A stretch of 34,651 bases of DNA from an uncultured virus (IMG/VR IMGVR_UViG_3300021957_003318) (lineage: Duplodnaviria; Heunggongvirae; Uroviricota; Caudoviricetes; Demerecviridae): IMG/VR virus record IMGVR_UViG_3300021957_003318. One strand, written 5' to 3'. Below the pieces are notes generated by a model. The model did not search any database, was not told the DNA's origin, and was given only the letters and a program-made list of their open reading frames with translations. The position numbers were made by a program, and so were the translations under genes. This document shows positions 5,219-34,651 of the stretch, one piece after another. Positions within the stretch are counted from its first letter, which is position 1, and each line of letters begins with the position of its first letter.

Positions 5219-5228
5219 AATTATGTAT

Positions 5229-6465: not shown

Positions 6466-7111
6466 TAGATGTCTCCTTGTTAAAATAATATTTTAGTGCT
6501 AATTCATATACTCCTGAAACATCTTTTACGTTCCAGTGGTCTTGTGCATTTCCTACTGCACCAATGTACTCATTGTTGTGCCATATATGAAAACCTGTTT
6601 TACTTGATACTTCATTCCACTTTGCACTATTACTCTCGGTTCTTAGCTGTGGTAGTATTCTATCTTTATCGAATACTATTTCGTATAATCTGTTATCTGT
6701 CCTGTGTTGAGCAGTTAGTTTTATGTCTCTGTTCCCGTTAATATCAGTTCTTAACTTAGTAATACCTGGGAATAGTTTTCCTAGTCTTCTGTAGTTGTTT
6801 ACATCATAACTAATTACCCATGCTTTCATATCTAAATTTAGTACTCTATTTAGCATGAGCCTATTCATTCCTGGATGTATAGAAAACTCTTTTGCAGTGT
6901 CACTATACCATATTATAACTGGGTTGACGAACCCGTTGCTCAACACATCTTTTACAAAAGCGTACAGTCTTATGTCTAATCTATCCTGCTGTCGCTCGTA
7001 CCACCCCTTGACATTCCAAAGGTCTACAGGCGGTAGTGTTTTTAATAAATCTTTAGTGAGTATTTCTCCAATACACACTCTTTGTTGTAGAGGATTATAT
7101 ATCATAAGCAC
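6437..7111 (-). CDS. Hypothetical protein with possible ParB/sulfiredoxin-like domain
   Basis: 'VKDVLSNGFVNPVIIW...IHPGMNRL' ParB-N-like pattern. Confidence 0.5.
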   Translation of the reverse strand: MLMIYNPLQQRVCIGEILTKDLLKTLPPVDLWNVKGWYERQQDRLDIRLYAFVKDVLSNGFVNPVIIWYSDTAKEFSIHPGMNRLMLNRVLNLDMKAWVISYDVNNYRRLGKLFPGITKLRTDINGNRDIKLTAQHRTDNRLYEIVFDKDRILPQLRTESNSAKWNEVSSKTGFHIWHNNEYIGAVGNAQDHWNVKDVSGVYELALKYYFNKETSNAFIHRKTT

Positions 7112-8456
7112 TTTCTCCTGTGCTTAGAGCCTCTTTCATTTCTTCTTTAGTATCAGGGTTTATCTCTGTCTCAGGTCCCATTCTCAATGTTTCCCAGTTC
7201 ATTCTAGTAATAAAACCTTTTTCTTTTCCACTTCTCATTTTATCACATTTAAATTCTACACAATCATGCTCATCACCCCAATGGTCTAGGGTAAAGGCCG
7301 CATCAACAGCGTCAAGAATACCCTTAGAGAATCTTGCTTCACCGTCTTTATTTACTTGATATGCTGAGAGAACAAGAACGTTACTCTCTTGGGCTAGTGA
7401 TTTTAACCCTTTTGATATTTCTATTTGTTCAGTCCATTCGTACTGACCTCCACGAGTAGGCGCGTTATGGCGCTTAACTTGGTTTAGATAATCCACTATG
7501 ATAATCCCTAGATTAGGGTCTTCTACTAGTTTTTGTTTTACTACGCTGATAACTTTTGCTAATGTAAGGGAAGGGTCATAATAGATGTCTATTTGAGGAA
7601 CATCTTTACGAAGCGGATTACGAGTCAATTGATAATGAAACTTGTCAAAATCTTGGTGATCGTCGTACTCTTTCCTAACCTCGTCTCCATTCTCGAATCT
7701 TGCAGCCCACCAGTCAGCTACCTTATGCCACTCCATAGTAGTAAGGTTTCTAGCTTCTAGTCTGCCAAGCGGAACACCGACTGACATTGCACATATTCTT
7801 TGTAGTATTTCTCTAGTAGACATCTCTATAGTAAAGTATAATGCTGACTTACCTCTTTGAAGGGAAGAAACAGCACTATTACATAGAGAAAGTGATTTAC
7901 CTTTGCCTCGTGAAGCACCGATAACTACTAAGTCTTTGGGAGAGAACTTATAATCAAAATCGAATTCTGAGTTCAGACCTAGTGGAAGAGCCATTGCTAA
8001 ATCTTCCTCACTATCAAATAACTCAATATGTTCCATACTTTCGTTGGCATCATTCGTTTCTACTCTATCTTCAACTTGTACTACAATTTCTTGCAACAAG
8101 TCAATGTTTTCACGAGCATCTCCGATAGCTATTTGAGTGTCTACAAAAGTTTCAATTCTTGTAAGAATCTCACTTTGTGTAAATTGGTTTTTTAAATAAT
8201 CTAATAAAAGTTCTGGAGCAACATCTGTTTCCACAGTTTCAATGGCATAGATTTTTTCTTGAAGTTCCCTTGAACGGACTTCTAGTTTTAAATCTTCAAA
8301 TGTTGGCAAATCTTGGTACTTATGTACATGCTTGTCTACTATTTTCCACAGTTTTCGGTACTCACCTTCAGGGAAGTAGTGTTCTTTTAGACCATTCCAA
8401 GTATTGAAATCGCCTAGCGCAAGTATTTGCTTTAGTAATGCACTTTCTAATGTCAA
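7095..8456 (-). CDS. DnaB-like replicative helicase (T5 D6-like)
   Basis: Walker A GASRGKGKS, YFTIEM, Walker B IIVDYLN, SAYQ. Probable TTG start at 8456, 6 nt after a GGGAG RBS (the track starts at 8474). Confidence 0.93.
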   Translation of the reverse strand: MTLESALLKQILALGDFNTWNGLKEHYFPEGEYRKLWKIVDKHVHKYQDLPTFEDLKLEVRSRELQEKIYAIETVETDVAPELLLDYLKNQFTQSEILTRIETFVDTQIAIGDARENIDLLQEIVVQVEDRVETNDANESMEHIELFDSEEDLAMALPLGLNSEFDFDYKFSPKDLVVIGASRGKGKSLSLCNSAVSSLQRGKSALYFTIEMSTREILQRICAMSVGVPLGRLEARNLTTMEWHKVADWWAARFENGDEVRKEYDDHQDFDKFHYQLTRNPLRKDVPQIDIYYDPSLTLAKVISVVKQKLVEDPNLGIIIVDYLNQVKRHNAPTRGGQYEWTEQIEISKGLKSLAQESNVLVLSAYQVNKDGEARFSKGILDAVDAAFTLDHWGDEHDCVEFKCDKMRSGKEKGFITRMNWETLRMGPETEINPDTKEEMKEALSTGESAYDI

Positions 8457-8486
8457 TTGAATCTCCCAAGACAATTATTAATTTAT

Positions 8487-8521
8487 AAAAAAGGCGAGGC
8501 AATCCCGAAGGAAAGCTCGCC
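8487..8521 (-). terminator. Intrinsic terminator after D5
   Basis: Minus strand GGCGAG-CTTTCCTTCGGGATTGC-CTCGCC-TTTTTT. Confidence 0.85.
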
Positions 8522-8536
8522 CGCGATGTATAGGTA

Positions 8537-9253
8537 TTAGCCTATATCTTTTTTAGCAGCTCCGTTATAGTCTGAGCATTGTAGACCTCTTCTAGTAAGC
8601 ATTGTTTTCACGCCTCTTACTGTTTTGCCGATTTCATCAGCAATTTCTTCAACAGTCATGCCGTCAATGTCGACACCTGCTAAAGGGTCAGCTTTGCTAG
8701 AACCTTTAGTTTCTTTCTGCTTAGGAATAGCATTGATTTCACCAGCTCTTAGTAGTGATAAAGCTTTTCCTCTGATTGAATTTACGCTTCTGCCCATAGC
8801 TTCTGCGATATCTTCAATAAACGCACCATCATTAACTAATGATACGAACTGTCCTTCTTCCTGTTCGTTGTATGACTTTACAGTCTCAACTTTAGGTGCT
8901 GGTTTAACATGTTCTGTTAACTGCATAGAAAGGATTTTTCCTTGAATTGACTTAGCTGTGAAGCTTCCATCTTCAAAGTTTGATGCAATTTCTGCATATG
9001 TGTAAGAACCTGAGTTATCTTGCACAAAAGTGCTAAGAGTTGCTTCTTGTTCGTCTGAAAAAGACTTAGAAGCTGAAGCAGAAGCTAGTTCTACATCAAA
9101 ACCCATTTTTCTTAATTTGCTAGATACACTTCTTACAGAAGTTTCTAACTGCTCTGCTGCTGACGCAACAGTAGTTTGTGAGATAGGGGACTCACTGCCC
9201 ACGAAAGAAGTTAACTCTGAAGTTCTTTCGTCTGTCCATTTTGGTAATGCCAT
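8537..9253 (-). CDS. D5: T5 D5-like DNA-binding transcription regulator with repeated HTH units
   Basis: KWTDE...RSVSSKLRKMG, TYAEIA, KSIQGKILS, TVRGVKTMLTRRGL.DY; lies between ligase B and the helicase as in T5. Confidence 0.88.
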   Translation of the reverse strand: MALPKWTDERTSELTSFVGSESPISQTTVASAAEQLETSVRSVSSKLRKMGFDVELASASASKSFSDEQEATLSTFVQDNSGSYTYAEIASNFEDGSFTAKSIQGKILSMQLTEHVKPAPKVETVKSYNEQEEGQFVSLVNDGAFIEDIAEAMGRSVNSIRGKALSLLRAGEINAIPKQKETKGSSKADPLAGVDIDGMTVEEIADEIGKTVRGVKTMLTRRGLQCSDYNGAAKKDIG

Positions 9254-9255
9254 TT

Positions 9256-10014
9256 TTAATTTTCTCCAATTAAATGTTTTATATTACTTATTATAATAAC
9301 ACCTCGGTCACGAGCTGTTTCCGTCTTTGCTGACTCAATGCCTGACTCATTTATAAGATGAGTACAAACTTTTGTTAGACTTGATTTTACTACGAATCCA
9401 TACTGTTCTAATACTTTAGTAGCATGGGCTTTTGTAGGGTAGCTTTTTAACTTACCACTAATACATACAACACCAGTGACCTCTTTCTTTTTATTAATTT
9501 TATTATTCCAATTGAAGGGTAATGTGTCTTTGTATCTGTTAGGATAGAATTCTGTTTCCATGAAATTTACCAAGTTAGCTGATGCTTTTGGTCCGATACC
9601 TGCCTCAGTACAACTGTTCTCGCTAATATCTTCGATGTTTGATATTATATCGCATAATTTTTGAGAAGCCGACCGACCAATAAGTGGTATTGAGAAAGCT
9701 GGTAGAATGTCTATCAACTTACTACTCTTTGACTTCTGCAATTCATCAAAAAGTTTCTCAGCTAGTTTTTCACTTTGTATTCTATCCTGTATATCTGATA
9801 CAGTAAGTTCGTAAAGCTCGGGCAAAGATTCAACACCTAACTTAGAGATAGTTGAAGGTCCAAGCCCTTTTATTTTAAGAGAAGATGAAAAGGACTCCAA
9901 CTTTTTACTCCATTGTGCAGGACACTTTGTGTTTCTGCAGAACAACTGCTCATTGACTAACTCTAAAATAGAGTCGCAACAAGGACAATTGGTTGGTGGT
10001 GTAATCGTTGTCAT
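9256..10014 (-). CDS. NAD-dependent DNA ligase, C-terminal subunit (zinc finger, HhH, BRCT)
   Basis: PTNCPCCDS...FCRNTKC zinc finger, IKGLGP and GIGPK HhH motifs, VCISGKL...THLI BRCT. Confidence 0.93.
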   Translation of the reverse strand: MTTITPPTNCPCCDSILELVNEQLFCRNTKCPAQWSKKLESFSSSLKIKGLGPSTISKLGVESLPELYELTVSDIQDRIQSEKLAEKLFDELQKSKSSKLIDILPAFSIPLIGRSASQKLCDIISNIEDISENSCTEAGIGPKASANLVNFMETEFYPNRYKDTLPFNWNNKINKKKEVTGVVCISGKLKSYPTKAHATKVLEQYGFVVKSSLTKVCTHLINESGIESAKTETARDRGVIIISNIKHLIGEN

Positions 10015-10041
10015 TTCTTTTCTCTCTCAAATATATAATAT

Positions 10042-10081
10042 ATTATACAAAAAGTTTAAGCATCTGTCAAGAACTATTTTT
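10042..10081 (-). promoter_or_regulatory. Sigma70-type promoter for ligase B-D5
   Basis: AAAAATAGTTC-TTGACA(10070-10065)-17-TATAAT(10047-10042). Confidence 0.85.
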
Positions 10082-10116
10082 GAAATGCTCAGGAAAATTT
10101 CCACATTCAAAATTTA

Positions 10117-10221
10117 CTACTCCTCGTAGATGTGGGTATCTTCCACAATGTTTCGATTTTTCCACTGAAAGTATAATGCCTTTAGTTTTTTAACTAAAGA
10201 GCTTATCCAATTTTTTATCAT
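10117..10221 (-). CDS. Small hypothetical protein (34 aa), not in the ORF track
   Basis: GAGG RBS then MIKNWISSLVKKLKALYFQWKNRNIVEDTHIYEE*. Confidence 0.5.
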   Translation of the reverse strand: MIKNWISSLVKKLKALYFQWKNRNIVEDTHIYEE

Positions 10222-11023
10222 AAATATCCTCTATTATTTTATCCGCCATTGCCTTATGACCATCTTCTAAGGGGTGGTCCATTGGCCCGTACTTTGTTTG
10301 TATTCTATACTTAGTTAACTCATAGAAGCCTTCGTCTGCTAGTTCAGGTATTTCTCTAAGGAAATCATCTTTTTTCATATTGTACTGCTGTTCCCAGACC
10401 ACATTAGCTCCTTCTTTCTTTACATCATCTAGTGAATCAATAGCACAGTCTACCTGTCCTTTACTCATCCAGTAATATAAATGTGGAATACCTAATCCAT
10501 TTAACATGTGCCTAAGATATATCATTTGCATAAGGGTCTCATGTAAATTCCATTTAATATTTCTACAATATCTCATGTAATTCTTCCAACCATCGTGCTG
10601 ATGTCTAGTCATGTCTGGGTGACAATATATTTCACTTCTTTTTATTTCTAAGTTTCTTTTATCAAATGCAAACCTAATATGACCTACCTGTCTCCAGATA
10701 TTCTCGTCATTTAGGTACTCTACTCTGTTTGGTCCTGACCACAATATAATTGCTATCTTCGGTTTCTTAGGCATTTGTATCATATCTGTACTAGTAACTC
10801 TGAGTATTCTGTCATTACCTCCACCTATCTTAGAAGACCTACTCCAAGTTTGGTCAAAATGTTCTGCAACTAAATGCGTATAGCATCCGTTGAATCTATC
10901 TTGTAGTTCCATTCCTTGTGTAAAACTGTCTCCATTAAAATACATGTCAGGCTTTGTGCTAGTATATCTTTTGCACTGCCCTGGATTATCTATATAATTT
11001 AAATCTAGTACTGACTCACTCAA
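10190..11023 (-). CDS. SGNH/GDSL-hydrolase-like protein
   Basis: FNGDSFT (block I), GGGNDRI and C-terminal DHPLEDGH (DxH-type). Confidence 0.7.
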   Translation of the reverse strand: MSESVLDLNYIDNPGQCKRYTSTKPDMYFNGDSFTQGMELQDRFNGCYTHLVAEHFDQTWSRSSKIGGGNDRILRVTSTDMIQMPKKPKIAIILWSGPNRVEYLNDENIWRQVGHIRFAFDKRNLEIKRSEIYCHPDMTRHQHDGWKNYMRYCRNIKWNLHETLMQMIYLRHMLNGLGIPHLYYWMSKGQVDCAIDSLDDVKKEGANVVWEQQYNMKKDDFLREIPELADEGFYELTKYRIQTKYGPMDHPLEDGHKAMADKIIEDIYDKKLDKLFS

Positions 11024-12348
11024 AATACTTTTACTCCATATCTTTTTTCAAATAATTTGGCGTCTTCCCATGTGTTAACCATAGGTTGCCCTTTTATATT
11101 TAAACTTGTATTTAATAACATTGGTATCTTCGTCACTTCGTAATACGCTTCTAGTATTGGTCGTAATGCTGAGGTGCTGTCTTTACGAACCACTTGTACT
11201 CTTGCAGTTCCATCAACGTGGGTGACTGCTTTGTGGTCGTGTTTTGCTTTTGCAACATACTGCATATACTCGTTACAATGCCCTTCAAAATATTCATCTA
11301 CAAACTCCTCCAATATCGCGGGAGCGAAGGGTCTAAACTTCTGTCGTTTTTTGACATCATTAACGGTGTCTTTAATGTCATAACGGATATCGCCAAGAAG
11401 ACTGCGATTACCAAGCGCCCTAGGGCCAAACTCTGCTTTTCCATTTGCTACTCCTACCATTCGGTTATTAATTAATTCTTCTACTACTTTATAAGGATTG
11501 ATAGGTCTATCAATATCATATCCTAAAAAAGTATCTTTAAATTCTATCCTTTGTTTTGTACTAGCAAGTATGCAACCTAATGCACTACCTGCGTCTCCTG
11601 GATTAGGAAATATCCACATCTCTTTAAACTTGTTTCTTATTTTACTGTTTGCTACACAGTTTAGTGCAACGCCACCAGCGTATGCTACTTTATCTCCGTA
11701 CGTTCTTGCCTTATCAAATATTTTTCCAATCTCAAATTCAATTTGCAACTGCGCACTAGCGGCAATATCTTCAGGTGTTTGCCAAAACCATTTTTTCATA
11801 GGAATACCTTTATGTAGATTTTCATGTACTATACTAGTCATGTCTATACAAGGTGTACCATATGCAGCCATGCCCATTGTTATATACTCATCTTCGTTTG
11901 GCTTGAGTCCTATTCGTTTTGTAATTGCACTATAGAATAATCCTAGTGACCAAGGGTACTGTCGACTCCATACTTTCTCGTGGTCTACCCAAATACTTGC
12001 TGTGTCCCATTCTCCAATAGCATCTATAACTACTGTAACATCTGGAACAAAAGGAGCAGTATAATAAGCTGCTGCCATATGACTCTCATGATGTCTAACA
12101 TGGTTTGATATAAACTTACCATTATCTGTGGGCTTCATGCCACTAGCTATTCTACGAGCATTTTTCAACTCTGTATCTTCATAGAAAAAACTTTGATTAC
12201 ATTCTAGTTTCTTAAACTCTATAGGAAGATGTTTATCATTCTTGACACGACTATACCTCTCAGCTTGAGTTGCAAATAGAATCTTATCGTCTTCCATATG
12301 TGCCACTGCGGCATCATGGAATCCTTCACTAATCCCTAAATACTTCAT
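11020..12348 (-). CDS. Carbamoyltransferase (NodU/CmcH family)
   Basis: LGISEGFHDAA, ERYSRVKND, HHESH, DAIGE, GGVALNC, EFGPRALGNRS, RPFAP, HVDGTARVQ, LNTSLN. Start moved to MKYLG at 12348. Confidence 0.96.
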   Translation of the reverse strand: MKYLGISEGFHDAAVAHMEDDKILFATQAERYSRVKNDKHLPIEFKKLECNQSFFYEDTELKNARRIASGMKPTDNGKFISNHVRHHESHMAAAYYTAPFVPDVTVVIDAIGEWDTASIWVDHEKVWSRQYPWSLGLFYSAITKRIGLKPNEDEYITMGMAAYGTPCIDMTSIVHENLHKGIPMKKWFWQTPEDIAASAQLQIEFEIGKIFDKARTYGDKVAYAGGVALNCVANSKIRNKFKEMWIFPNPGDAGSALGCILASTKQRIEFKDTFLGYDIDRPINPYKVVEELINNRMVGVANGKAEFGPRALGNRSLLGDIRYDIKDTVNDVKKRQKFRPFAPAILEEFVDEYFEGHCNEYMQYVAKAKHDHKAVTHVDGTARVQVVRKDSTSALRPILEAYYEVTKIPMLLNTSLNIKGQPMVNTWEDAKLFEKRYGVKVF

Positions 12349-12709
12349 TTTTCTTGGGGAAACTGTGTAGGATTTTTGAGTCCATGCCAAAGCATTCCGT
12401 ATGCCCTCCAAAATGGTGTTGTGTTTTATGTCTGTCTTTTTCATACATCTTGTGTAATTTCTGTTCCCATCTCCAGCAGTCGTATATCGTCCCCTGCCAA
12501 AGTCTCTGTATTCTTATGTCGTAGTTTGTAAATCCACGCCCTCGCTTTACTGCGTCTTTGAATGTTCGCCCTTTTGCGATTCCTACTTTTATTGTTTCTC
12601 GTTCCCATGTTTGCATGTTTACCAGTACTATTCCGTATAGTATGCCGTCTTTTTCTTTTTCCCACGGATGGTTGTTGAAAAAGGTTTGATTATATACTCC
12701 GCCACTCAT
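12329..12709 (-). CDS. GIY-YIG/T5orf172-like nuclease-fold protein
   Basis: GILYGI...IKVGIA...R...WEQKLH...FGGHTECF pattern. Confidence 0.7.
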   Translation of the reverse strand: MSGGVYNQTFFNNHPWEKEKDGILYGIVLVNMQTWERETIKVGIAKGRTFKDAVKRGRGFTNYDIRIQRLWQGTIYDCWRWEQKLHKMYEKDRHKTQHHFGGHTECFGMDSKILHSFPKKNEVFRD

Positions 12710-25437: not shown

Positions 25438-25566
25438 TTAAGTAAGTACCGTAACACTCTGCACCATTATGCCACCAAAGGCTACCACTAATGTATAATT
25501 AGCTACCATGTTGCAGAACTCTCCGTTCTCACATATACTATCACGAACTTTTGATAATGTTTTCAT
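25438..25566 (-). CDS. Small protein with hydrophobic C-terminus (42 aa), not in the ORF track
   Basis: MKTLSKVRDSICENGEFCNMVANYTLVVAFGGIMVQSVTVLT*; TGATG coupling to Hsp20. Confidence 0.65.
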   Translation of the reverse strand: MKTLSKVRDSICENGEFCNMVANYTLVVAFGGIMVQSVTVLT

Positions 25567-25958
25567 CAATTAATCTCCAAGATTTTCCTCTTGGAATCTG
25601 GAGTTCGTAACAGTCTGATTGTCAGCAATCCGTCTTGTAGACTTACTTCTTCTACTTGTAGGTCGGCGTTTAGAATAAATCTTCGTTCAAAAGACTTTAA
25701 ACTTAATCCTTGATGAATGAAATTTTCATCTTCTCCTAGTTTTGTTTCTTTTTTACCCTTTATGTGGAGTTCTTTGTTATCAAAGACAATCTCCAGTTCT
25801 TCTTTTTTCCACCCTGGCACTGCGACTTCTATACGATAGTCTCCTGCCTTTTCGATTAGGTTATATCTAGGATATGCTGCATCCGTATAAGACGGCAGTG
25901 TAGGCATATCCAATCCAAGCCAAAATTTGCTTAAATCTATACTCATAATTTTCTCCAT
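25566..25958 (-). CDS. Small heat-shock protein Hsp20 (IbpA-like)
   Basis: YPRYNL...YRIEVAVPGW...FIHQGLSLKSFERRF...LQDGLLTI. Alternative start at 25946. Confidence 0.95.
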   Translation of the reverse strand: MEKIMSIDLSKFWLGLDMPTLPSYTDAAYPRYNLIEKAGDYRIEVAVPGWKKEELEIVFDNKELHIKGKKETKLGEDENFIHQGLSLKSFERRFILNADLQVEEVSLQDGLLTIRLLRTPDSKRKILEIN

Positions 25959-27774: not shown

Positions 27775-28023
27775 TCAATTATCCTTCCTAGAAAACGCAT
27801 CTATAACCTCCTCTATTGACTGTGGGGGTTGAACTATTGTTATGTTCTTACCCTCTAGTTTATGTACTGCTCCATTGTTGTAGTAAACAAAGTAGCCCTC
27901 TCCAAATCCTAAGTCACCACCCTTTTTACAAGCATAGTGTTGACATATCTTATTACCCCAGTCTTCTGCAGCGAGGTAAACCCTTCGTCTTTCAACTAAC
28001 TCTGTATGTTCAGTCATTAGCAA
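27775..28023 (-). CDS. Hypothetical protein
   Basis: 82 aa, GGAGG RBS, coupled to the upstream stop. Confidence 0.65.
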   Translation of the reverse strand: MLMTEHTELVERRRVYLAAEDWGNKICQHYACKKGGDLGFGEGYFVYYNNGAVHKLEGKNITIVQPPQSIEEVIDAFSRKDN

Positions 28024-28661
28024 TCCTCCCAGAATTTATCTGCTATCTCATCTAGTACTTCGTTTGGATAGATAACATCTCCACCGACTTTGTACTCTCC
28101 ATAGTAATCAAAGTCCTCTGATTCAGTATCTATACTAGGAAAGCGTTCATTGAATGATTCCATGAGTGCATCTGCATCAGTCTCATTGTAATCTCCTTCC
28201 CAAGCATACCAGCCATTAATGCTTTCATCTTGCTCTTTATCAGAACCATAGTACTGTTTACCCATGAAGTTTCTGAACTCATCTTCATAAGTCATACTTG
28301 CAGTTACTTCAGTATCGTACTTGTTTGCATAGTATTCTATTACATTTATTACTAACTCATGTGGTTGTCTCCAAGCACTGTAGCCAGCAATATATCCATC
28401 CTGTGCTTCGTCAAGGTGACACCATTTAGCACCTACTTCATTACAGTACCAGTCATATGAGTTTTTTAAATCGCCATCTTCGTCAAATTCCTTAGAAACA
28501 TTACTCATAAATGGTTGTTCTTCAATCTCTACTAACGCATTGAAAGTGTAGTCTTCGTTGTCATAGTTCTTTGCTGTTCTTTCTTCAGTCTTCACGCCTT
28601 CGTTAAACTGGTCATCTTCAATTCCTTGTACTTGAATTGTAAAGTGTACATGATTTGCCAT
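28017..28661 (-). CDS. Acidic DUF1281/YubB-like ferredoxin-fold phage protein
   Basis: MANH...YDWYCNEVGAKW...SAWRQP...YEDE pattern; AAGGAG RBS. Confidence 0.6.
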   Translation of the reverse strand: MANHVHFTIQVQGIEDDQFNEGVKTEERTAKNYDNEDYTFNALVEIEEQPFMSNVSKEFDEDGDLKNSYDWYCNEVGAKWCHLDEAQDGYIAGYSAWRQPHELVINVIEYYANKYDTEVTASMTYEDEFRNFMGKQYYGSDKEQDESINGWYAWEGDYNETDADALMESFNERFPSIDTESEDFDYYGEYKVGGDVIYPNEVLDEIADKFWEDC

Positions 28662-28662
28662 G

Positions 28663-29448
28663 TTAAATCTCCTTTAGTTTTATTTTGTTGTTATAATTAT
28701 CCCATAATTTGATACCTTTGTGAAGGTTTCTGTAATCCTTCTTAGGTTTCAAACTACTCCATTGTTCTTCTAGTGGTGGGAAATAACAAGTATCACACAT
28801 TTTTAGAGGTCTGTTTAGTTTAGTACCCCAGTCTGAAATGTGTATGCCTTCTACTTTCCTTCCGAAAGATATAGCACATTGATACATTGTTTCTCCTTCT
28901 ATTGTTCTGCAGTGTTCTTTTTGCCAACATGTTTTCCAATTACCTTCAGGTGTATACTCAATATTAGGTTGAGGTACACCAAATCTTTCAAAACTTGTCA
29001 TTACTGCTATGTGGACTTTATTAAATTCCTTAGAGAGTCCACTCTCCTTCCATTTTGCTACTTGATTAATACTTACATCTACCATAGGATAGATACTTAT
29101 TAAAATTTTATCTAATTTAGAACATGCACTGATAACTTTTTCAGTCATATTCAGTGCATTTGTATTTAACCACACTTGTTTTGCTACCTCTGAAGTTAGT
29201 AGAAAGTCTACTATTTCAGGGAACTCTGGGTGTGTGGTTGGTTCTCCACCCAATATTTTAAGAGTTTCTAGTTGATATCCCCACTTTTTGATTAACTTTA
29301 CCTGTTCTTTTACTTGATTTAGGGTTAAAAACTTGTTGATTACACCATATTCTTCATCTTTGTACTTATAGTCAAGCACAGAGCAATGCTTACAACTCAG
29401 GTTGCAAGCATTTATAATGTGTATATCAAACTCTCCTGTTAAAAGCAT
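28663..29448 (-). CDS. Radical SAM protein
   Basis: CNLSCKHC (CxxxCxxC), LGGEPTTHP, NTNA, C-terminal Cys cluster. Confidence 0.92.
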   Translation of the reverse strand: MLLTGEFDIHIINACNLSCKHCSVLDYKYKDEEYGVINKFLTLNQVKEQVKLIKKWGYQLETLKILGGEPTTHPEFPEIVDFLLTSEVAKQVWLNTNALNMTEKVISACSKLDKILISIYPMVDVSINQVAKWKESGLSKEFNKVHIAVMTSFERFGVPQPNIEYTPEGNWKTCWQKEHCRTIEGETMYQCAISFGRKVEGIHISDWGTKLNRPLKMCDTCYFPPLEEQWSSLKPKKDYRNLHKGIKLWDNYNNKIKLKEI

Positions 29449-29882
29449 TAGATATCGCCTTCTGCCCTTACTTCTGAACGAATCACCTCAAAACCATTCG
29501 GATATCTCTTTTCTAGTTTATTAATGTTTTCGTCCATTACTTCGTCAGGTGTGAATCCTAATGCTATACATCCTTGAACCCAGTACCAAAGTACATCACC
29601 TAACTCTCTTTTCATGTGAAAAACTTCGTCGTTTGTGAACTGTGTATCGTTCTGAAATACTTTCTTTTTCACAATCTCAGCAAATTCTCCACTCTCTGCC
29701 ATCATACCTATCAGTGCAGTCATCAATCTTGCCATATCTATCTCACAGTCAATCAATACACCATTCTGCATAGTGTGATTTCCCATAAGTTTATCCAATC
29801 TGTCGCACATTTTAGTCGTATCTTTACTTGTTTCGGATGTGCACTGGTCTACGAACTTAGCGTAGTCATTTATTTTACTCAT
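29448..29882 (-). CDS. MazG-like nucleotide pyrophosphohydrolase
   Basis: GMMAESGEFAEIVKK...RELGDVLWY...NINKLEKRYP. Confidence 0.93.
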   Translation of the reverse strand: MSKINDYAKFVDQCTSETSKDTTKMCDRLDKLMGNHTMQNGVLIDCEIDMARLMTALIGMMAESGEFAEIVKKKVFQNDTQFTNDEVFHMKRELGDVLWYWVQGCIALGFTPDEVMDENINKLEKRYPNGFEVIRSEVRAEGDI

Positions 29883-30148
29883 TACGCTACACCTCCACTG
29901 ATATTAGATATGAACTTTTCTGCTTTCTCAATCATATCCCACTCTCTTTTAAGTATTAATTCATCATCACGGAGTATTCTTCCGTCCTCTAGGTAGATTG
30001 TCATGTGTTTACAGTTTCTTGATGGACATTCCCAGTGTTCGTACTTAGGTTTTGTGTCAATCGGGTACTGTATGCTTTTGATTTTGCTACCATTTGCTTC
30101 CATGCCTACTGCATAGTGTCTTCCGTTTCCATATAATTTATTTGCCAA
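29882..30148 (-). CDS. Hypothetical protein
   Basis: 88 aa, AAGGAG RBS, TAATG coupling. Confidence 0.65.
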   Translation of the reverse strand: MANKLYGNGRHYAVGMEANGSKIKSIQYPIDTKPKYEHWECPSRNCKHMTIYLEDGRILRDDELILKREWDMIEKAEKFISNISGGVA

Positions 30149-30416
30149 TGTCTTTTATCTCCTTCTTTGGTATCACTTGATAAGCACCTTTATTGTACGC
30201 AATAGATACCGTATATTGCTTTGATACTTCTTTTCTATACGAGTTGTCTTGTGGAGTTTTGTACTCTCCGATTGGCATACTAGGTATTTCACTCGCTTCC
30301 TTAAATTGTTTTGCCTCTTGTTTAGCGAAATTAGGCGTCGCTTTCTTACTTGTGTATAGTTTCTTTACTTTACGTTTACGACCATATTGGTCATACATCA
30401 TACTTCCCTGTCTCAT
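30138..30416 (-). CDS. Conserved basic phage hypothetical protein
   Basis: C-terminal TVSIAYNKGAYQVI motif seen in phage hypothetical proteins. Confidence 0.7.
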   Translation of the reverse strand: MRQGSMMYDQYGRKRKVKKLYTSKKATPNFAKQEAKQFKEASEIPSMPIGEYKTPQDNSYRKEVSKQYTVSIAYNKGAYQVIPKKEIKDIGK

Positions 30417-30619
30417 TCTTTCTCCTGTGGTAATTCGATGTTGTTAATAGTACAGAGTCTGTTCAGGAGTTCTTCATACTCCATTGTTAACTCTAATATA
30501 TGTTCGTTTAAAGACTGTAAGTCGTCCAAGCACATTTTGATTTCTTCTTCCTGTGCTTGGAGTTCTTCCACTAGTCTTGTCGCTTCGGTGATTAATGGGA
30601 ACTGTATTACCTTACCCAT
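30413..30619 (-). CDS. Hypothetical coiled-coil protein
   Basis: MGKVIQFP N-terminus, acidic heptads. Confidence 0.7.
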   Translation of the reverse strand: MGKVIQFPLITEATRLVEELQAQEEEIKMCLDDLQSLNEHILELTMEYEELLNRLCTINNIELPQEKE

Positions 30620-30687
30620 AGTATCGCCACTGCTAGTCCTATATTGAATAGGACAAGTCCAATTACAAATGCGTGTCCGTCTATCAT
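30607..30687 (-). CDS. Possible 26-aa single-TM peptide
   Basis: MIDGHAFVIGLVLFNIGLAVAILWVR*; ATGA coupling with the upstream gene. Confidence 0.5.
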   Translation of the reverse strand: MIDGHAFVIGLVLFNIGLAVAILWVR

Positions 30688-30821
30688 CTGCCCTGTCCTC
30701 TATACTTCTTGAACGAACGCTTCTTGTGTTTGTTCTTGTTGAGGGACATATTTCTATGTGAATCGCCTTGTGATGTTTTCTTTACATGACTCTTATGTTT
30801 TGCTTGACCACTCCACCTCAT
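30684..30821 (-). CDS. Small highly basic protein (45 aa) ending KKYRGQGR; not in the ORF track
   Basis: MRWSGQAKHKSHVKKTSQGDSHRNMSLNKNKHKKRSFKKYRGQGR*; GAGGTG RBS, ATGA coupling on both sides. Confidence 0.75.
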   Translation of the reverse strand: MRWSGQAKHKSHVKKTSQGDSHRNMSLNKNKHKKRSFKKYRGQGR

Positions 30822-31039
30822 GATTGCACCTCACTCCACTCTATAACTATACCTCTGCGGACTAGTTCGTTTAGACACTTCTGTCTTACTTTAGGTTTCA
30901 TGTTTGCACCTCTATCGTTGATGTACTCAAACAATTCTTGTTTTGGTGTGTCTTTGATGTAGAAGTGTTCCATAGGTAATTTACTTGCTGGTACGCCTCT
31001 GACATATTTCTTTGCACTTGGTTTAAATTTTATTGGCAT
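30818..31039 (-). CDS. Hypothetical basic protein
   Basis: 73 aa, AAGGAG RBS. Confidence 0.75.
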   Translation of the reverse strand: MPIKFKPSAKKYVRGVPASKLPMEHFYIKDTPKQELFEYINDRGANMKPKVRQKCLNELVRRGIVIEWSEVQS

Positions 31040-31164
31040 AATGCTCTCCTTTGTTATATTGTTAAATTGGGGAGGGCATTTTCATCCCTCAGTGTATGTT
31101 CAGACATAACCTCCACACTCATTCATCTAGGAAAATGTGGTTTCCTTTTTCTTTTCATATAGAT

Positions 31165-31203
31165 ATTATACAGATGTTTGAGGGGTTTGTCAAGAACTAT
31201 TTT
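31165..31203 (-). promoter_or_regulatory. Sigma70-type promoter
   Basis: AAAATAGTTC-TTGACA(31193-31188)-17-TATAAT(31170-31165). Confidence 0.85.
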
Positions 31204-31243
31204 GAATTAACATAAAGAATTTTGATGTTAAGTTATTTGAAGC

Positions 31244-31269
31244 AAAAAAATGGGAACCGAAGTTCCCAT
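31244..31269 (-). terminator. Intrinsic terminator closing the large non-coding transcript
   Basis: Minus strand ATGGGAAC-TTCG-GTTCCCAT-TTTTTT. Confidence 0.9.
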
Positions 31270-32204
31270 CCAAAGTTTTTGTTGTTTAAAGTGGTCGTGG
31301 CGGAATAATTCACGAACCTATCCACTGCGTAACGAGAGGTGATGGATATTACGAACTTCAATCTACGACTTGCGTCTATGGTATACTGCTCATTTCGCAT
31401 CACTTCTTTACTACTGTCGACTAATTGAGTGCGAACTTCTTCAGTATATCTACTGGTTGACAGAGCGACTGCCGTTCTCGTTCCAATCTCTTTCCAACTT
31501 AATGGTAGCGACATTATCTAGTGCATCTGCCCCCGAAGTCCTAAGACGTTCTCGCTCTCGCAGTATGCGGTGGGAAGCATCACCCTTCCCTTGCCCGAAT
31601 AGATGTATCTGCTTACTTCCGTGACACCCTAAGGTGGCAGATAACGAGGTTTACTCTTTAGAAGGTTAGACTTGACAGTTAAAACTGAATCTCCTCTAAT
31701 CTTCAAGCGTGGTTTCCTCACACTGGGGTTGATTCTATGGTCGTAATCCACCCTGTTCAATTACCTCTGTTTTAGTAAACCCGAAGGTCGTAACGCCCAT
31801 TAAAACAGTAAAACAAATCGGTTTTATACTATCGACATAGTGCTGAAGTCTCTTGCGTTGTTTTCGCCTTGCTTACTGCCCTTGCTTTCGTATTGCTACT
31901 AAGTTCGCAGGACTTACAGAAGGTATCTACTCAACCCCTTTACCGACCAGTTAATCGGGTTATCACTCGCTCCTTGCTGCGGAAGGTATGTCTGATAACG
32001 ACTCTCAAAAGCGGACATTATTCACAGTTAACGCAATCTCATCTATGTCTAAAGAGCATACGGCAGTGTTTTACGAGTCGCCACTCAGGTAGAAAAGAAC
32101 TCTCGATTATTTATTCGCTGCCACTTTCAATCCCGAAGGAGTCTGGGTGGGTCACTGCTAAATCATTAATTTTTTCGATTTAGTGTTCTTTTCTTTGTTT
32201 CTGA
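31245..32204 (-). ncRNA. Candidate large (~950 nt) highly structured non-coding RNA
   Basis: Own promoter and terminator, no credible ORF or RBS, raised GC, many nested helices, UUCG/GNRA loops on the minus strand. Confidence 0.72.
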
Positions 32205-32210
32205 ATATAT

Positions 32211-32249
32211 ATTATATCCACTTTCTAACCATTTGTCAAGAAGAATTTT
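32211..32249 (-). promoter_or_regulatory. Sigma70-type promoter for the candidate large ncRNA
   Basis: TTGACA(32239-32234)-17-TATAAT(32216-32211). Confidence 0.88.
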
Positions 32250-32303
32250 GATGTATTTACTACTTGGTAGTTAATACTTTAACTCAGTCCCAACGGGGTC
32301 GCT

Positions 32304-32489
32304 TTATAACTGCATTGCAATTAGAGCAGCGACTAGAAGTAATGTTACACTTCCGACAATCTCTGCAAAGGTCATGTTTACAAGATTGTTTAGTTCCTCT
32401 GTGATGTAGTTTAATACCCACACCAATATTCCACCTGATATTATTATTCCAAATACTACCATGAAGAAGTTCACTATAAAGTTTTCCAT
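32304..32489 (-). CDS. Small two-TM membrane protein
   Basis: AAGGAG RBS, own promoter, two hydrophobic helices. Confidence 0.75.
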   Translation of the reverse strand: MENFIVNFFMVVFGIIISGGILVWVLNYITEELNNLVNMTFAEIVGSVTLLLVAALIAMQL

Positions 32490-32515
32490 TTCTTCTCCTT
32501 TTTAAATATAAGTAT

Positions 32516-32553
32516 ATTATACTCACTTTATTACCATCTGTCAAGAACTATTT
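32516..32553 (-). promoter_or_regulatory. Sigma70-type promoter
   Basis: AAATAGTTC-TTGACA(32544-32539)-17-TATAAT(32521-32516). Confidence 0.85.
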
Positions 32554-32562
32554 AAGGAGAAC

Positions 32563-32704
32563 TTGACGAAACTTTGAAAAGGGCAGAGATACTTTGCAGG
32601 TCAAGAGTCGAACTTGCTACTTCCATTTGGTGTGCTTCCGAAGACACTTCTCCAAAGTAGATACCCTTTTCAAAATTGATTACTTAGGGCAATCACTCCG
32701 TCAA
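32563..32704 (-). ncRNA. Candidate ~140-nt structured RNA with a tRNA-like T-loop
   Basis: TTGACG/CGTCAA outer stem, perfect 11-bp TTTGAAAAGGG/CCCTTTTCAAA, cUUCGg arm and CAAG-TTCGACT-CTTG arm. Confidence 0.55.
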
Positions 32705-32706
32705 CA

Positions 32707-33012
32707 TTATAGACTGTCGACTAGTCTCTGTAAATCTGCTTTACCTGCTTTTACTAGTGTTGGTAATTCAATCCCGAAGTGGTCTTGTACTGCCGCTACT
32801 AATTCTGATTTACTTACTACTGCTTCACCTGATTTTGTTGTTCTAGGTTGTGCAATGTATACACCTTCTCTGCTTAGTTTAGCAATGATACTTCTTGTAG
32901 TTTTGCCGAACTGTTGTGCTAGTGCGTCTACAGTTTCTCTTGTTGGATTATCAGTGTATGCTGTAGTCATTTCACTTACCATTTCTTCTGTGTAGTTTTT
33001 AGCGTTTGCCAT
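32707..33012 (-). CDS. T5 A2/D3-family DNA-binding protein (copy 2)
   Basis: MANAKNYTEE...PTRETVDALAQQFGKTTRSIIAKLSREGVY...TKSGEAVVSKSELV...LVKAGKADL; GGGAG RBS before ATG 33012. Confidence 0.78.
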   Translation of the reverse strand: MANAKNYTEEMVSEMTTAYTDNPTRETVDALAQQFGKTTRSIIAKLSREGVYIAQPRTTKSGEAVVSKSELVAAVQDHFGIELPTLVKAGKADLQRLVDSL

Positions 33013-33057
33013 TGTTATTCTCCCAAATAATTGTGTTTTTGTTTTCTTTATATGAAT

Positions 33058-33185
33058 ATTATACACACTTTCTTTTGCTTTGTCAAGAAGAATATTACAT
33101 TTTCTTGAGAACTTTGCGGTGATTGTGTCGTGTTTAAATCTTATCATAATACCAATATTATATCCACTTTAGCACTAGTTGTCAA
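33058..33185 (-). promoter_or_regulatory. Two tandem sigma70-type promoters for the A2-like gene
   Basis: TTGACA(33086-33081)-17-TATAAT(33063-33058) and TTGACA(33185-33180)-17-TATAAT(33162-33157). Confidence 0.85.
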
Positions 33186-33300
33186 TAGAAAATGCGAATT
33201 AATTATAGAAATGTGGAGGGGAATCTCGGGGGCAGGGACGCGACACTGTGACGGGTGCCTCGCAAATCCTTCCAAAAACGCAAATTTCTCGTAAATTCTC

Positions 33301-33329
33301 TTGACACCCGCGATAAGCCATGTTATACT
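33301..33329 (+). promoter_or_regulatory. Sigma70-type promoter reading into the repeat region
   Basis: TTGACA(33301-33306)-17-TATACT(33324-33329). Confidence 0.7.
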
Positions 33330-33376
33330 TATAGAAACTTATAATAGACTAGCATCACTTTAGCACTTTGCGCGGT

Positions 33377-33415
33377 TTCGTTTTTGCACTTCGTTTTTGC
33401 ACTTCGTTTTTGCAC
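33377..33415 (+). repeat. 3 x 13-bp tandem repeat TTCGTTTTTGCAC
   Basis: Exact copies at 33377, 33390 and 33403, followed by TTTGGCGC. Confidence 0.95.
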
Positions 33416-33580
33416 TTTGGCGCGGGCTGGGGTCCCCAATACACCCCCTGCTAAACTGGCGCTCTTATGCGGGTCTCACACGGATTGTGCAAATTCTACA
33501 CAATTTCTAGGGCAATGCACCCGCCTTTAGGTTCGTTAGACTAGTGTTTCACAGAAATGTATCTAATTTTGAAAAAACCC

Positions 33581-33688
33581 TTGCCAAGCTTGTCAGAGTG
33601 TGATAAAATCGGCGCGATGCGCATCGACTTAAAATAATTCATTTATTTTCGATTTACCTATTGATATTCTCATAGATATCTGTATAAT
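33581..33688 (+). promoter_or_regulatory. Two plus-strand sigma70-type promoters upstream of a 50-aa gene
   Basis: TTGCCA(33581)-17-TAAAAT(33604) and TTGATA(33661)-16-TATAAT(33683). Confidence 0.65.
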
Positions 33689-33712
33689 AGTTTCTATATT
33701 AAGGAGAACATT

Positions 33713-33865
33713 ATGAAAAACGAAAAAACAAAAAAAGTGGCAAAAACAAAAGCGACATTAGTTGCAGAATTAGAGGTAATCGCAAAATGCGACAAAGGTT
33801 TCCTAGACAGTCTAGAGAGAGCAAATGCTTCTACCATCAAAAAACTAACAGCACTTATGTCCTGA
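33713..33865 (+). CDS. Small basic protein (50 aa) resembling the C-terminal part of the A2-like proteins; not in the ORF track
   Basis: TAAGGAG RBS, promoter and terminator; MKNEKTKKVAKTKATLVAELEVIAKCDKGFLDSLERANASTIKKLTALMS*. Confidence 0.85.
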   Translation: MKNEKTKKVAKTKATLVAELEVIAKCDKGFLDSLERANASTIKKLTALMS

Positions 33866-33871
33866 TACAGT

Positions 33872-33896
33872 ACCCGACGAAAGTCGGGTTTTTTTT
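33872..33896 (+). terminator. Intrinsic terminator
   Basis: ACCCGAC-GAAA-GTCGGGT-TTTTTTT. Confidence 0.92.
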
Positions 33897-33911
33897 ATTT
33901 TTAAAAAGGTA

Positions 33912-33940
33912 TTGACAAACACTGCAAAGCGTGCTACAAT
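33912..33940 (+). promoter_or_regulatory. Sigma70-type promoter with no downstream gene
   Basis: TTGACA(33912-33917)-17-TACAAT(33935-33940). Confidence 0.7.
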
Positions 33941-33982
33941 ACCAGGGTGGAGGGCGGGACGCAGGCGGGACGCACAGAGACT

Positions 33983-34002
33983 TGTGGATATCCTGTGGAT
34001 AA
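33983..34002. promoter_or_regulatory. Two tandem DnaA-box-like sites
   Basis: TGTGGATAT (33983-33991) and perfect TGTGGATAA (33994-34002), the reverse complement of TTATCCACA. Confidence 0.7.
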
Positions 34003-34032
34003 CTCGGCATGTCTCACGAAGACATCACTTTT

Positions 34033-34098
34033 ACACTTCACTTTTGCACTTTGGCGCTGACGCCATCGATTTAACACTTCACTTTTGCACTTTGGCGC
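34033..34098 (+). repeat. 25-bp direct repeat ACACTTCACTTTTGCACTTTGGCGC (2 copies)
   Basis: Exact copies at 34033-34057 and 34074-34098; shares TTTTGCACTTTGGCGC with 33408-33423. Confidence 0.95.
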
Positions 34099-34124
34099 AG
34101 GGCGCACCCGCCTATAAAAAGCTG

Positions 34125-34143
34125 AATGAGAATCATTCGCATT
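34125..34143. promoter_or_regulatory. Fur-box-like palindrome
   Basis: AA-TGAGAAT-C-ATTCGCA-TT, compared with the 7-1-7 consensus TGATAAT-N-ATTATCA. Confidence 0.6.
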
Positions 34144-34149
34144 TGGAAA

Positions 34150-34171
34150 TTGTCACACAATTGTCACACAA
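34150..34171 (+). promoter_or_regulatory. Pho-box-like 11-bp direct repeat
   Basis: TTGTCACACAA x2, TGTCA core with an 11-bp period, directly upstream of a -35 element. Confidence 0.6.
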
Positions 34172-34177
34172 AAGGTA

Positions 34178-34228
34178 TTGACAAAACCCGAAACGCACCC
34201 TATAATTTATCTTATAAATTATAGGGTG
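34178..34228 (+). promoter_or_regulatory. Promoter whose -10 element lies inside a perfect 15-bp inverted repeat
   Basis: TTGACA(34178-34183)-17-TATAAT(34201-34206); CACCCTATAATTTAT-CTT-ATAAATTATAGGGTG (34196-34228). Confidence 0.7.
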
Positions 34229-34260
34229 TGTCAATCCTTTTTTAAAAAAATCCAAAACAC

Positions 34261-34290
34261 AAAAAAAAATCCCGAGGGGTAGTCGGGATT
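34261..34290 (-). terminator. Intrinsic terminator (possibly bidirectional)
   Basis: Minus strand ATCCCGA-CTACCCC-TCGGGAT-TTTTTTTT. Confidence 0.8.
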
Positions 34291-34382
34291 TTAGGTTTAC
34301 CTAGTTAGGAGTAGGATTTAAATTTGAGTGCCGAGGGCAAAATTTTCTACTAACATGTTAATAAATAAAATTCTCGGCTCTC

Positions 34383-34651
34383 AAAAAAGGTGGCTCGGTT
34401 AGTTCGATATAATCTCCCCAACCTTGCCGACTCGCTTTGACTTTCCCCTTGCTACAGTATGCGTTCCCTTTAGCTGTTAAGTCTTGATACAGTTTCAAAA
34501 TCGTGAGATAATAAAACCTTTCAAACCCTAGAGCAGTTAATCAGTTGGCTATCTTTAGCGATAGACATTGAGTCCCTAGCTAGTCCGAGGGTTAGAGGTC
34601 TGGGCGTTCTCTTAATTGCCGAAGCGTTGGGAGTGTTCCTTTTCCTCTCAT
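34383..34651 (-). ncRNA. 3' part of a second candidate structured ncRNA, probably continuing beyond the window
   Basis: No ORF; stems AGAGG/CCTCT, AACCCT/AGGGTT, CTATC/GATAG and GGTTGG/CTAACC before a T-run; short motifs shared with the 31.2-32.2 kb element. Confidence 0.45.

Follow-up and report, generated by a model that had tools for sequence, protein, structure and literature searches.

What is made from nearly a kilobase of phage DNA that is framed by a perfect promoter and an intrinsic terminator and holds no conserved open reading frame (ORF)? The question is raised by positions 31245..32204 of IMG/VR record IMGVR_UViG_3300021957_003318, a stretch of 34,651 nucleotides (nt) from an uncultured virus assigned to Demerecviridae (the window; all coordinates refer to this whole stretch, and (-) marks its minus strand). 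The phage is a distant T5 relative, with a DNA polymerase ~43% identical to those of Demerecviridae. An earlier note, made by a model from the letters alone, had read the region as a large non-coding RNA (ncRNA), possibly of a new class, and this reading is borne out by covariation in sets of 27 and 47 sequences, by the absence of a coding signal and by the absence of a matching Rfam family. We consider it very likely that the region is a separately transcribed gene for a structured ncRNA of ~960 nt, belonging to an undescribed modular family of uncultured marine T5-like phages. The observation as first described was partly confirmed: the unit and part of its stems were found to hold, and other stems were rejected.

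The ncRNA gene (31245..32204, (-)) extends over ~960 nt from promoter to terminator. The sigma-70 promoter TTGACA-17-TATAAT at 32211..32239 (-) is perfect (12/12 matches), as had been claimed, and places the start site at ~32204; unit positions (u) given below count from this inferred start site (window position = 32205 - u). Perfect sites in 28000-34651 number six, including the ncRNA promoter, and promoter-like sites number 30 (18.5 ± 4.5 in shuffled sequence). The claimed UUCG-loop terminator was likewise found at 31244..31271 (-), where a 10-bp stem with a CUUCGG loop (31271-31248) is followed by a T-run; in relatives this stem shows compensatory substitutions and the insertion of a module. 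The next perfect promoter (31165..31193, (-)) follows ~50 nt past the terminator, which makes the downstream gene of 73 amino acids (aa) a separate unit. Inside the unit the G+C content is 0.42-0.48, while in the flanks it is mostly 0.32-0.40. The only minus-strand ORFs within the unit are of 93, 43 and 34 aa and none is conserved in relatives, in agreement with the ~950 nt without an ORF led by a ribosome-binding site noted before.

To obtain relatives, an exact 35-mer was searched, which led to four viral contigs, two of them with full-length copies (93% and 91% identical). Anchoring the search on the nearby MazG-like gene yielded 268 related loci, and in most of the best 80, which were taken further, nhmmer detected the RNA or parts of it. 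Each extracted unit began at a perfect promoter and ran as far as the final T-run ahead of the following perfect promoter; loci truncated by a contig end were set aside. The extraction produced 43 complete units (34 distinct) of 855-1218 nt and 48-96% identity to that of the window; a perfect promoter precedes each complete unit and the terminator-then-promoter arrangement recurs in all 43, both the preceding and the following promoter being extraction criteria. Two further pattern scans yielded 52 viral stretches and at least 120 metagenome stretches (80 metagenome loci were taken), and five promoter-to-promoter units with upstream protein genes were removed by hand. In total, 72 distinct units of 855-1352 nt from viral and metagenome contigs fall into nine sequence clusters, namely A (46 units, including that of the window), B (10), C (5), D (4), E (3) and four singletons.

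Neither the unit of the window nor those of its relatives gave a sign of coding. Among nine close relatives, variable columns are spread evenly over the three phases (112/111/119, P-value = 0.85), so the codon-level conservation that would have spoken for an ORF was not found. In the 93-aa ORF (31233-31514), substitutions by codon position are 34/36/30 (P-value = 0.76); this ORF has no PHROG match and is lacking in the relatives L004 (96% identical) and L041 (92% identical). Each sense frame holds 16-31 stops in every sequence, and TAA, TAG and TGA are present in all frames of both strands of the window, so that no single stop reassignment opens a frame. The longest sense ORF has a median length of 51 aa over the 72 units, the positions of ORFs differ between relatives, and no sense ORF is conserved among the 72 units.

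Covariation among homologues, which had been set beforehand as a test, was found above both shuffled and slid controls. Three sequences alone show compensatory changes in four stems, and on 17 sequences RNAalifold predicted 132 pairs, compensatory changes being present in 52. An alignment of 27 type-A sequences (A3) gave a structure of 188 pairs in 37 helices, in which 94.9% of cells are paired (85.7 ± 0.3% after shuffling, 0/500 as high; 39-45% in the slid control, where partners were moved by 1-3 columns). In the same alignment, 74 pairs are changed on both sides (49.9 ± 3.2 shuffled, 15-32 slid), as are 410 cells (128.6 ± 8.9 shuffled, 28-52 slid), and the covariation score is 0.256 (0.110 shuffled, 0.04-0.06 slid). 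In the alignment A4 of the core (149 nt, unit 115-263; 47 sequences, 27 pairs), 97.2% of cells are paired, compared with 75.8% in shuffled and 28-50% in slid alignments, and 239 cells are changed on both sides, compared with 78.9 ± 6.1 after shuffling. A 7-bp helix of the core is paired in 100% of cells, with compensatory changes at 7/7 pairs (47 sequences). The compensatory changes are spread along the whole unit. Furthermore, a scan for covarying stacks beyond the nested fold suggested four more helices (unit 156-160/187-191, 268-271/356-359, 501-503/542-544 and a pseudoknot 255-257/360-362). Predicted pairs contain 434 G.U cells and 64 A.C cells, and this excess indicates that the minus strand is the folded strand; the minus strand as RNA is favoured as well by the orientation of promoter and terminator.

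In overall layout, a 5' domain is followed by a pseudoknotted core and then by a series of hairpin modules towards the 3' end, and compensatory substitutions maintain all of them. The 5' domain (unit 1-116; 32089..32204, (-)) is composed of a closing stem, an inner stem, A-rich conserved strands and a variable UUCG-capped arm. Its closing stem AGAAAAGAAC/GTTCTTTTCT (32185-32194 with 32091-32100, (-)), a 10-bp stem already assigned this place in the earlier note, is supported by covariation: the inner pairs are broken in 0/27 sequences and show three pair types each, and G-C is replaced by C-G in L041. The inner stem lies at 32157-32163 with 32113-32118 (-).

The core domain (unit 115-263; 31942..32090, (-)), aligned in 47 sequences, starts with the hairpin GAGU-GGCG-ACUC (32075-32086, (-)), followed by the helix GACAU/AUGUC (unit 156-160 with 187-191; 32045-32049 with 32014-32018, (-)) and by the 7-bp helix mentioned above (31993-31999 with 31959-31965, (-)), which encloses a hairpin with the near-invariant loop CCGCAGC (31972-31986, (-)). 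The loop of the last core hairpin (unit 247-262; 31943-31958, (-)) enters the pseudoknot, its bases 31948-31950 pairing with a 3' strand at 31843..31845 (unit 255-257 with 360-362, (-)); all three pairs are formed in 27/27 sequences, with the types UG/UA/CG and GC/UA/UG. Next to it lies an enclosing helix (unit 268-271 with 356-359; 31934-31937 with 31846-31849, (-)), whose region 31846..31937 holds a variable arm as well as a further helix (31919-31923 with 31867-31872, (-)). The CCGCAG loop might also form a tertiary pairing with CUGCGG, to which it is complementary in 24-27 of the 27 sequences at 5/6 pairs and in 16/27 at the sixth; both are almost invariant. The CCGCAGC loop differs in distant members. 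A long-range helix of unit 188-195 with 879-886, predicted by RNAalifold, is without compensatory change and clashes with the covarying local helix 156-160/187-191.

The 3' of the core is occupied by hairpins, all on the minus strand. ACUAU-NUCG-AUAGU (unit 364-368 with 373-377; 31828-31841) covaries and is followed, within 31767..31841, by GUAUAAAA and a small hairpin, and then by a long UUCG-capped hairpin CTGTTTTA/TAAAACAG (31767-31808) supported by covariation, the stem of which, named in the earlier note too, is paired in 25-27 of the 27 sequences. The hairpin GUGAGGAAACCACGC (31707..31721), whose loop AGGAAAC is 7 nt long, is invariant in 17/17 and 27/27 type-A sequences; a 19-mer extended from it has 52 exact matches among viral contigs. 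The plug-in hairpin GAUUCAGUUUUAACUGUCAA (31672..31691) is common to otherwise unlike RNA versions. It is followed by UAUCUGC...GCAGAUA with an inner CACC-UUAG-GGUG hairpin (31606..31643), where the proposed TATCTGC/GCAGATA stem was supported by the types AU12/GC8/UA1 at pair 563-598, and by the hairpin GGGAAGGG/CUUCCC with a conserved CAUACUGCGRGA...GGGGCAG helix after it (31522..31590). The hairpin GGCAG-UCGCU-CUGUC (31459..31473) has pairs CG15/AU8 and AU17/GC8, a change visible already among three sequences, and a long 3' hairpin (unit 794-876) and the hairpin GGUUCGUG...CACGACC (unit 887-912) lie within 31293..31411.

Three other stems proposed in the earlier note did not survive the alignment of 27 sequences. 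The long-range helix GACATAG/CTATGTC is broken at three of its pairs in 19, 14 and 14 sequences; its 3' strand is used by the covarying local hairpin 364-368/373-377, and GACAU pairs locally with AUGUC. A second long-range helix, TTGCGTT/AACGCAA, is broken in 24 and 14 sequences, and CATCT/AGATG in 12-16 sequences at 4/5 pairs. For TTCGCA/TGCGAA and TATCCA/TGGATA the picture is mixed: the majority of sequences retain both stems, yet neither ever covaries and each has competing pairings.

The family is modular, and closely related phages carry different RNA versions at one fixed locus. By nhmmer, the core domain was detected in 52/72 units and was missing from 20/72; a covariance model of the core (R1), run with filters off, gave 0 matches in 14 loci that carry 14 of these 20 units (types B, C, E, G and I). 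The 5' domain is common to type A and to 8/10 type-B units, the other two being below the nhmmer threshold. At the same locus, phages with a MazG 94% identical to that of the window carry type-B RNAs (1020-1123 nt), whereas phages with 88-90% MazG identity carry type-A RNAs that are 92-96% identical. Type B is structured too, with 285 predicted pairs in eight sequences, 40 of them compensatory, and 73/2181 cells broken. In addition, the promoter-to-terminator slot of related phages was seen to hold other versions of ~1.0-1.35 kb without ORFs (type B in L018, L023, L034 and others, C in L171, E in L188 and I in L222).

Several modules recur in these versions. GAUUCAGUUUUAACUGUCAA was found in 28/42 units across types A and B and in 7/9 sequence clusters, and it has at least 120 exact matches in metagenome contigs. 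GAUUCAGYUUUARCUGUCAA, UCAGUGUGC...CCAUCAAGUAAUGUGA, GGGCAAGG...CCACGC...CUGCGG, GAACGGCAGUNGCUCUGUCAA and AGUAGUAGGGCAAGUCCCACGC are common to versions as well, at differing positions. In L058 (4600-4638), L048, L037, L014 and L053, AGUAGUAGGGCAAGUCCCACGC sits in the tip of the terminator hairpin, while in L007, L028, L060 and L082 it is part of internal hairpins; it appears to be a mobile structural cassette.

To determine whether the RNA belongs to a known family, the whole window was compared with the 4227 families of Rfam 15 by cmscan, and no match reached a gathering score. With permissive filters, the sole match at E ≤ 10 in 31100-32350 was PYLIS_5 (E-value = 7.3) on the opposite strand. 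OLE, raiA, HEARO, RNase P, transfer-messenger RNA (tmRNA), signal recognition particle (SRP) RNA, 6S, group I/II introns and ribosomal RNA (rRNA) were not matched in Rfam 15, and ARAGORN detected 0 transfer RNA (tRNA) or tmRNA genes in the window, which agrees with the earlier statement that tmRNA, RNase P, intron and tRNA signatures are missing. Six RNA versions (B, D, F, G and the cluster-A units L069 and L082) gave no Rfam match, and the Rfam and ARAGORN search of 11 further loci with other RNA versions gave only one tRNA. The GOLLD model (RF02032, 416 positions, gathering score 150 bits) and the ROOL model (RF03087, 574 positions, gathering score 99.1 bits) matched 0/4 related phage records at E ≤ 10, one of which carries an RNA ~96% identical to that of the window; both negatives are limited to the reach of the models, because among 14 control genomes GOLLD was matched in 5, none above the cut-off, and ROOL in none.

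Searches for the RNA itself outside the family were similarly empty. By blastn against 50,697 GenBank phage records, type A of the window, type B of L018, type C of L171 and type E of L188 obtained no match, and none was found in the nearest virus record, the 52-kb fragment G001. Among 185,579 prokaryote genomes, the 20-mer module was matched 5 times, which is close to chance expectation, and by nhmmer no match resembled the RNA outside the 20-mer itself. Core model R1 found nothing in phage T5 or Aeromonas phage Akh-2; it matched a complete 105-kb relative exactly once (E-value = 3e-32). In the literature, searched mostly by listing, we found no description of a ~960-nt RNA of marine T5-like phages. 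An IMG/VR-wide screen of structured viral RNAs (Fremin et al., 2023, PMC10690425) gives, in the part of the report consulted, candidates of 29-151 nt, so that none of these describes a 1-kb RNA; the supplement files searched for its motifs had 0 occurrences, and fragments of the ~960-nt RNA may be among the candidates.

Evidence for transcription comes from public sequencing runs. A 2-kb stretch centred on the RNA is in part contained in 20/23 listed runs, 12 of which are recorded as RNA, from 12 studies. Contig depths were taken from four RNA runs of four studies. Over the RNA body (31303-32173) the summed contig depth is 61-10,757 in runs X2, X3 and X6 and 0-1,466 in X7, where a contig hole over 31437-31771 proves nothing, while it is 0-24 over the downstream gene (30700-31235) and 31-916 over the upstream small gene (32241-32508). 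The unit has ~100-1000 times the contig depth of the downstream gene, in contigs that are short (~90-530 nt). These depths are indirect support, not proof, that the RNA is very abundant in seawater RNA libraries; of the earlier claim that it is strongly expressed, the high depth in libraries of four studies stands, and the support remains indirect. Expression early in infection, which the earlier note also proposed, would fit the host-type promoter and the position upstream of the replication genes. In run X2, a contig over the RNA and the upstream 61-aa gene stops at 32512 and continues as sequencing adaptor. Contigs that bridge the ncRNA promoter suggest that transcription may in part begin at the perfect promoter further upstream (32544-32516, (-)), whose expected start site lies close to 32512. 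A longer transcript from that site may include the small 61-aa gene, which encodes a membrane protein.

We infer that the RNA is made in large amounts by the host RNA polymerase and acts in trans as a stable folded particle. Regarding its role, GOLLD and ROOL offer an analogy: both are abundant phage RNAs with no known function and form RNA-only nanocages, according to the part of PMC12286853 consulted. We tentatively suggest that the RNA of the window is an architectural RNA of this kind, which would build a defined tertiary, possibly multimeric, body with which part of the host tRNA or translation machinery would be held or sequestered during takeover. The locus adjoins a tRNA-like element and lies upstream of the genes for MazG, the radical-SAM protein and replication proteins. 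The tRNA-like element (32560-32680, (-)), between a D5-like DNA-binding gene and the promoter 32544-32516, combines the long stem GAAAAGGG...CCCUUUUC with an inner hairpin capped by UUCG and a hairpin GCAAGUUCGACUCUUGA resembling a T-arm; its minimum free energy (MFE) is -41.1 kcal/mol (z-score -2.76), and it was called by neither ARAGORN nor Rfam. In 3/60 loci (L063, L067 and L186), a canonical tRNA-Glu(UUC) lies between the tRNA-like element and the promoter of the large RNA. More far-reaching, and rather doubtful as a whole, is the idea that, after GOLLD and ROOL, the RNA stands for another independent class of giant ornate RNAs, the third in phages and one specific to abundant uncultured marine T5-like phages. 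Unlike GOLLD and ROOL, it would be a cassette system, the locus of which would house interchangeable versions, built from a shared hairpin kit around a pseudoknotted core and swapped between near-identical phages; the RNA would be among the most abundant phage transcripts of seawater, and as an RNA-only, possibly multimeric particle it would act on the host tRNA or translation machinery or on host defences.

A number of points weigh against the reading as a structured ncRNA gene or against its suggested role. Folding energy was expected to lie below that of shuffled sequences, and it does not: the MFE of the whole RNA is -252.7 kcal/mol and that of shuffles -247.0 ± 8.4 kcal/mol (z-score -0.68), with 5/20 shuffles as good. 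When four sub-pieces were folded, the 5' domain stood out (z-score -2.58) but the other three did not (z-scores -0.8 to -0.9), and the single-sequence folds of those three differ from the covariation-supported folds. This null result, which the earlier note had listed among the outcomes that would refute its call, weighs less than the covariation, yet it stands. The covariation counts have limits of their own, as the shuffle control ignores the relatedness of the sequences and the structure was derived from the same alignment as it was counted on. For the four extra helices, 91.8% of A3 cells are paired, compared with 74.7% in the control, and 12/15 pairs are compensatory, but this test is not independent because the helices were picked for covariation on an overlapping set. 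In the RNA libraries, depth was read from assembled contigs, with one figure each and related strains summed, the runs were chosen for containing the stretch, and contigs, which span the ncRNA promoter upstream to ~32512, show neither the strand nor the ends of the RNA. As for the role, the mechanism rests on analogy, and a true tRNA stands beside the RNA in only 3/60 loci.

Among other explanations, the one that survives best, though we regard it as somewhat unlikely, is an anti-defence decoy or sponge, in which the abundant RNA would mimic tRNA or another host or phage RNA and soak up a host RNA-targeting defence nuclease or an RNA-binding effector. Type B in phages with 94% MazG identity, set against 92-96% identical type A in phages with only 88-90%, is a mosaic typical of arms-race loci; the promoter is of a strong host type, and tRNA-like and tRNA genes adjoin the RNA. 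However, a decoy does not require 960 nt of architecture built around a conserved, pseudoknotted core, and Pfam and PHROGs scans found no defence or anti-defence family among the neighbours (PADLOC was not run). Besides, GOLLD also has a variable half, as described in the consulted part of PMC12286853, so variability alone cannot separate a decoy from an architectural RNA.

We hold it improbable that the RNA is a ribozyme or RNA-processing scaffold, whose core would catalyse or guide a reaction such as the processing, ligation or cleavage of tRNA or tRNA-like RNA. Invariant unpaired stretches (the CCGCAGC loop, GUGAGGAAACCACGC, GUAUAAAA and CUGCGRGA...GGGGCAG), the pseudoknotted core and the tRNA-like element close by would suit such a function, but RNase P, group I/II introns and self-cleaving ribozyme families were not matched in Rfam 15, the CCGCAGC loop is changed in distant members, and the core is absent from 20/72 units, with no match to the model in the loci that carry 14 of these. 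About as improbable is a precursor that is cut into hairpin-sized stable small RNAs as the active species. The reuse of plug-in hairpins at different places and in different versions and the shortness of the RNA-library contigs agree with it; short contigs, however, are expected anyway from strain mixtures at high depth, and the pseudoknot 255-257/360-362 and the helix 268-271/356-359 tie together parts ~90-105 nt apart, which argues for one folded body. Processing sites were not seen either, though contigs cannot reveal them. Finally, it is very improbable that the region encodes small proteins or is only cis-regulatory DNA, such as an extended leader or trailer of an adjacent gene. Such a reading could point to the 93-aa ATG ORF that overlaps the last third, to sense ORFs of 96-117 aa in some relatives and to library contigs that run from the upstream 61-aa gene across the promoter. 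Against it, that ORF is missing from close relatives and its substitutions show no codon-position bias, the RNA has its own terminator and the next gene its own perfect promoter, and compensatory changes occur along the entire unit.

The genes around the locus were also analyzed. Genes downstream of the RNA, on its own strand, encode primase, DnaB helicase, NAD-dependent ligase, endolysin, Hsp20, MazG and a radical-SAM protein. Neighbouring proteins of 73, 61, 68, 92, 88, 45 and 214 aa have nothing in Pfam or PHROGs, and the 146-aa upstream protein has weak matches to D5-like DNA-binding PHROGs only. At E ≤ 5, Rfam gave nothing but sub-threshold terminator-like matches in 32480-34651. The region 33200-34300 resembles an origin or control region, with perfect and near-perfect promoters that diverge on both strands, two DnaA-box-like sites TGTGGATAA/TGTGGATAT near 33983-34003, at least five 13-nt iterons CACTTTTGCACTT (at 33353-33423 and 34018-34098) and an 18-bp palindrome (34193-34231) that overlaps the promoter 34178-34206; we take it to be reminiscent of the T5 injection-stop region. 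Within it, a lysine-rich ORF of 50 aa (33713-33865, (+)) with a strong AAGGAG ribosome-binding site, a near-consensus promoter (33661-33688) and a terminator (33872-33889) is transcribed away from the early genes. The minus strand also carries cargo unusual for a T5-like phage, namely a Nol-like carbamoyltransferase (474 aa; 10190-12444), an Hsp20 small heat-shock protein (25566-25958) and a radical-SAM protein beside a MazG-like pyrophosphatase (28017-29882).

To our knowledge, few bacterial or phage RNAs approach 1 kb with an elaborate conserved fold (rRNAs, RNase P, group II introns, OLE, GOLLD and ROOL), and each of those we know of either does something remarkable or stays a prominent puzzle. 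The family described here would add a sequence-rich class, with 72 distinct members and at least 120 metagenome matches, from marine phages that are widespread, and its coverage in seawater RNA libraries is very good. Its large amount of covariation makes the RNA a ready target for cryo-electron microscopy and chemical probing. Modularity and the replacement of versions between near-identical phages amount to a natural experiment on the evolution of large RNAs and on the purpose of giant phage RNAs beside tRNA genes.

Several known systems invite comparison. Species 1 and 2 of phage T4 are stable non-tRNA RNAs of ~120-140 nt that lie with tRNA genes in the early region and are made by the host polymerase. 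Like them, the present RNA is phage-encoded, lies beside tRNA or tRNA-like genes and is probably made by the host polymerase; unlike them, it is a multi-domain RNA of ~960 nt. With the candidates of Fremin et al. (2023, PMC10690425), as far as the consulted part of that report describes them, it shares a covariation-based definition and an origin in the same viral contig collection. The part of PMC12286853 consulted describes ROOL as large, pseudoknotted and abundant, carried by phages and prophages close to tRNA islands, with no protein partner known. The RNA of the window is not matched by RF03087 within the reach of that model, is ~300-400 nt longer than its 574 positions and was detected solely in uncultured marine T5-like phages of lytic type and in none of the prokaryote genomes searched, but it is, like ROOL, a large, pseudoknotted and apparently abundant phage RNA near tRNA or tRNA-like genes. 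GOLLD is, according to the same part of that source, a phage-borne, ornate RNA of more than 800 nt with conserved and variable parts, known from aquatic metagenomes and often beside tRNAs. In contrast to GOLLD, the 5' domain and the 5'-central core are conserved here and the 3' part is variable, which is the reverse of the GOLLD arrangement (PMC12286853, consulted part), and RF02032 finds no match in the window or in the four related records. In other respects it is like GOLLD, as the consulted part of PMC12286853 depicts it: both are phage-borne RNAs of more than 800 nt (855-1352 nt here) with many helices, conserved and variable parts and a tRNA or tRNA-like neighbour, and the GOLLD-type setting recurs here in a T5-like phage whose unit of more than 800 nt has a tRNA-like element upstream, joined by tRNA-Glu in 3/60 loci.

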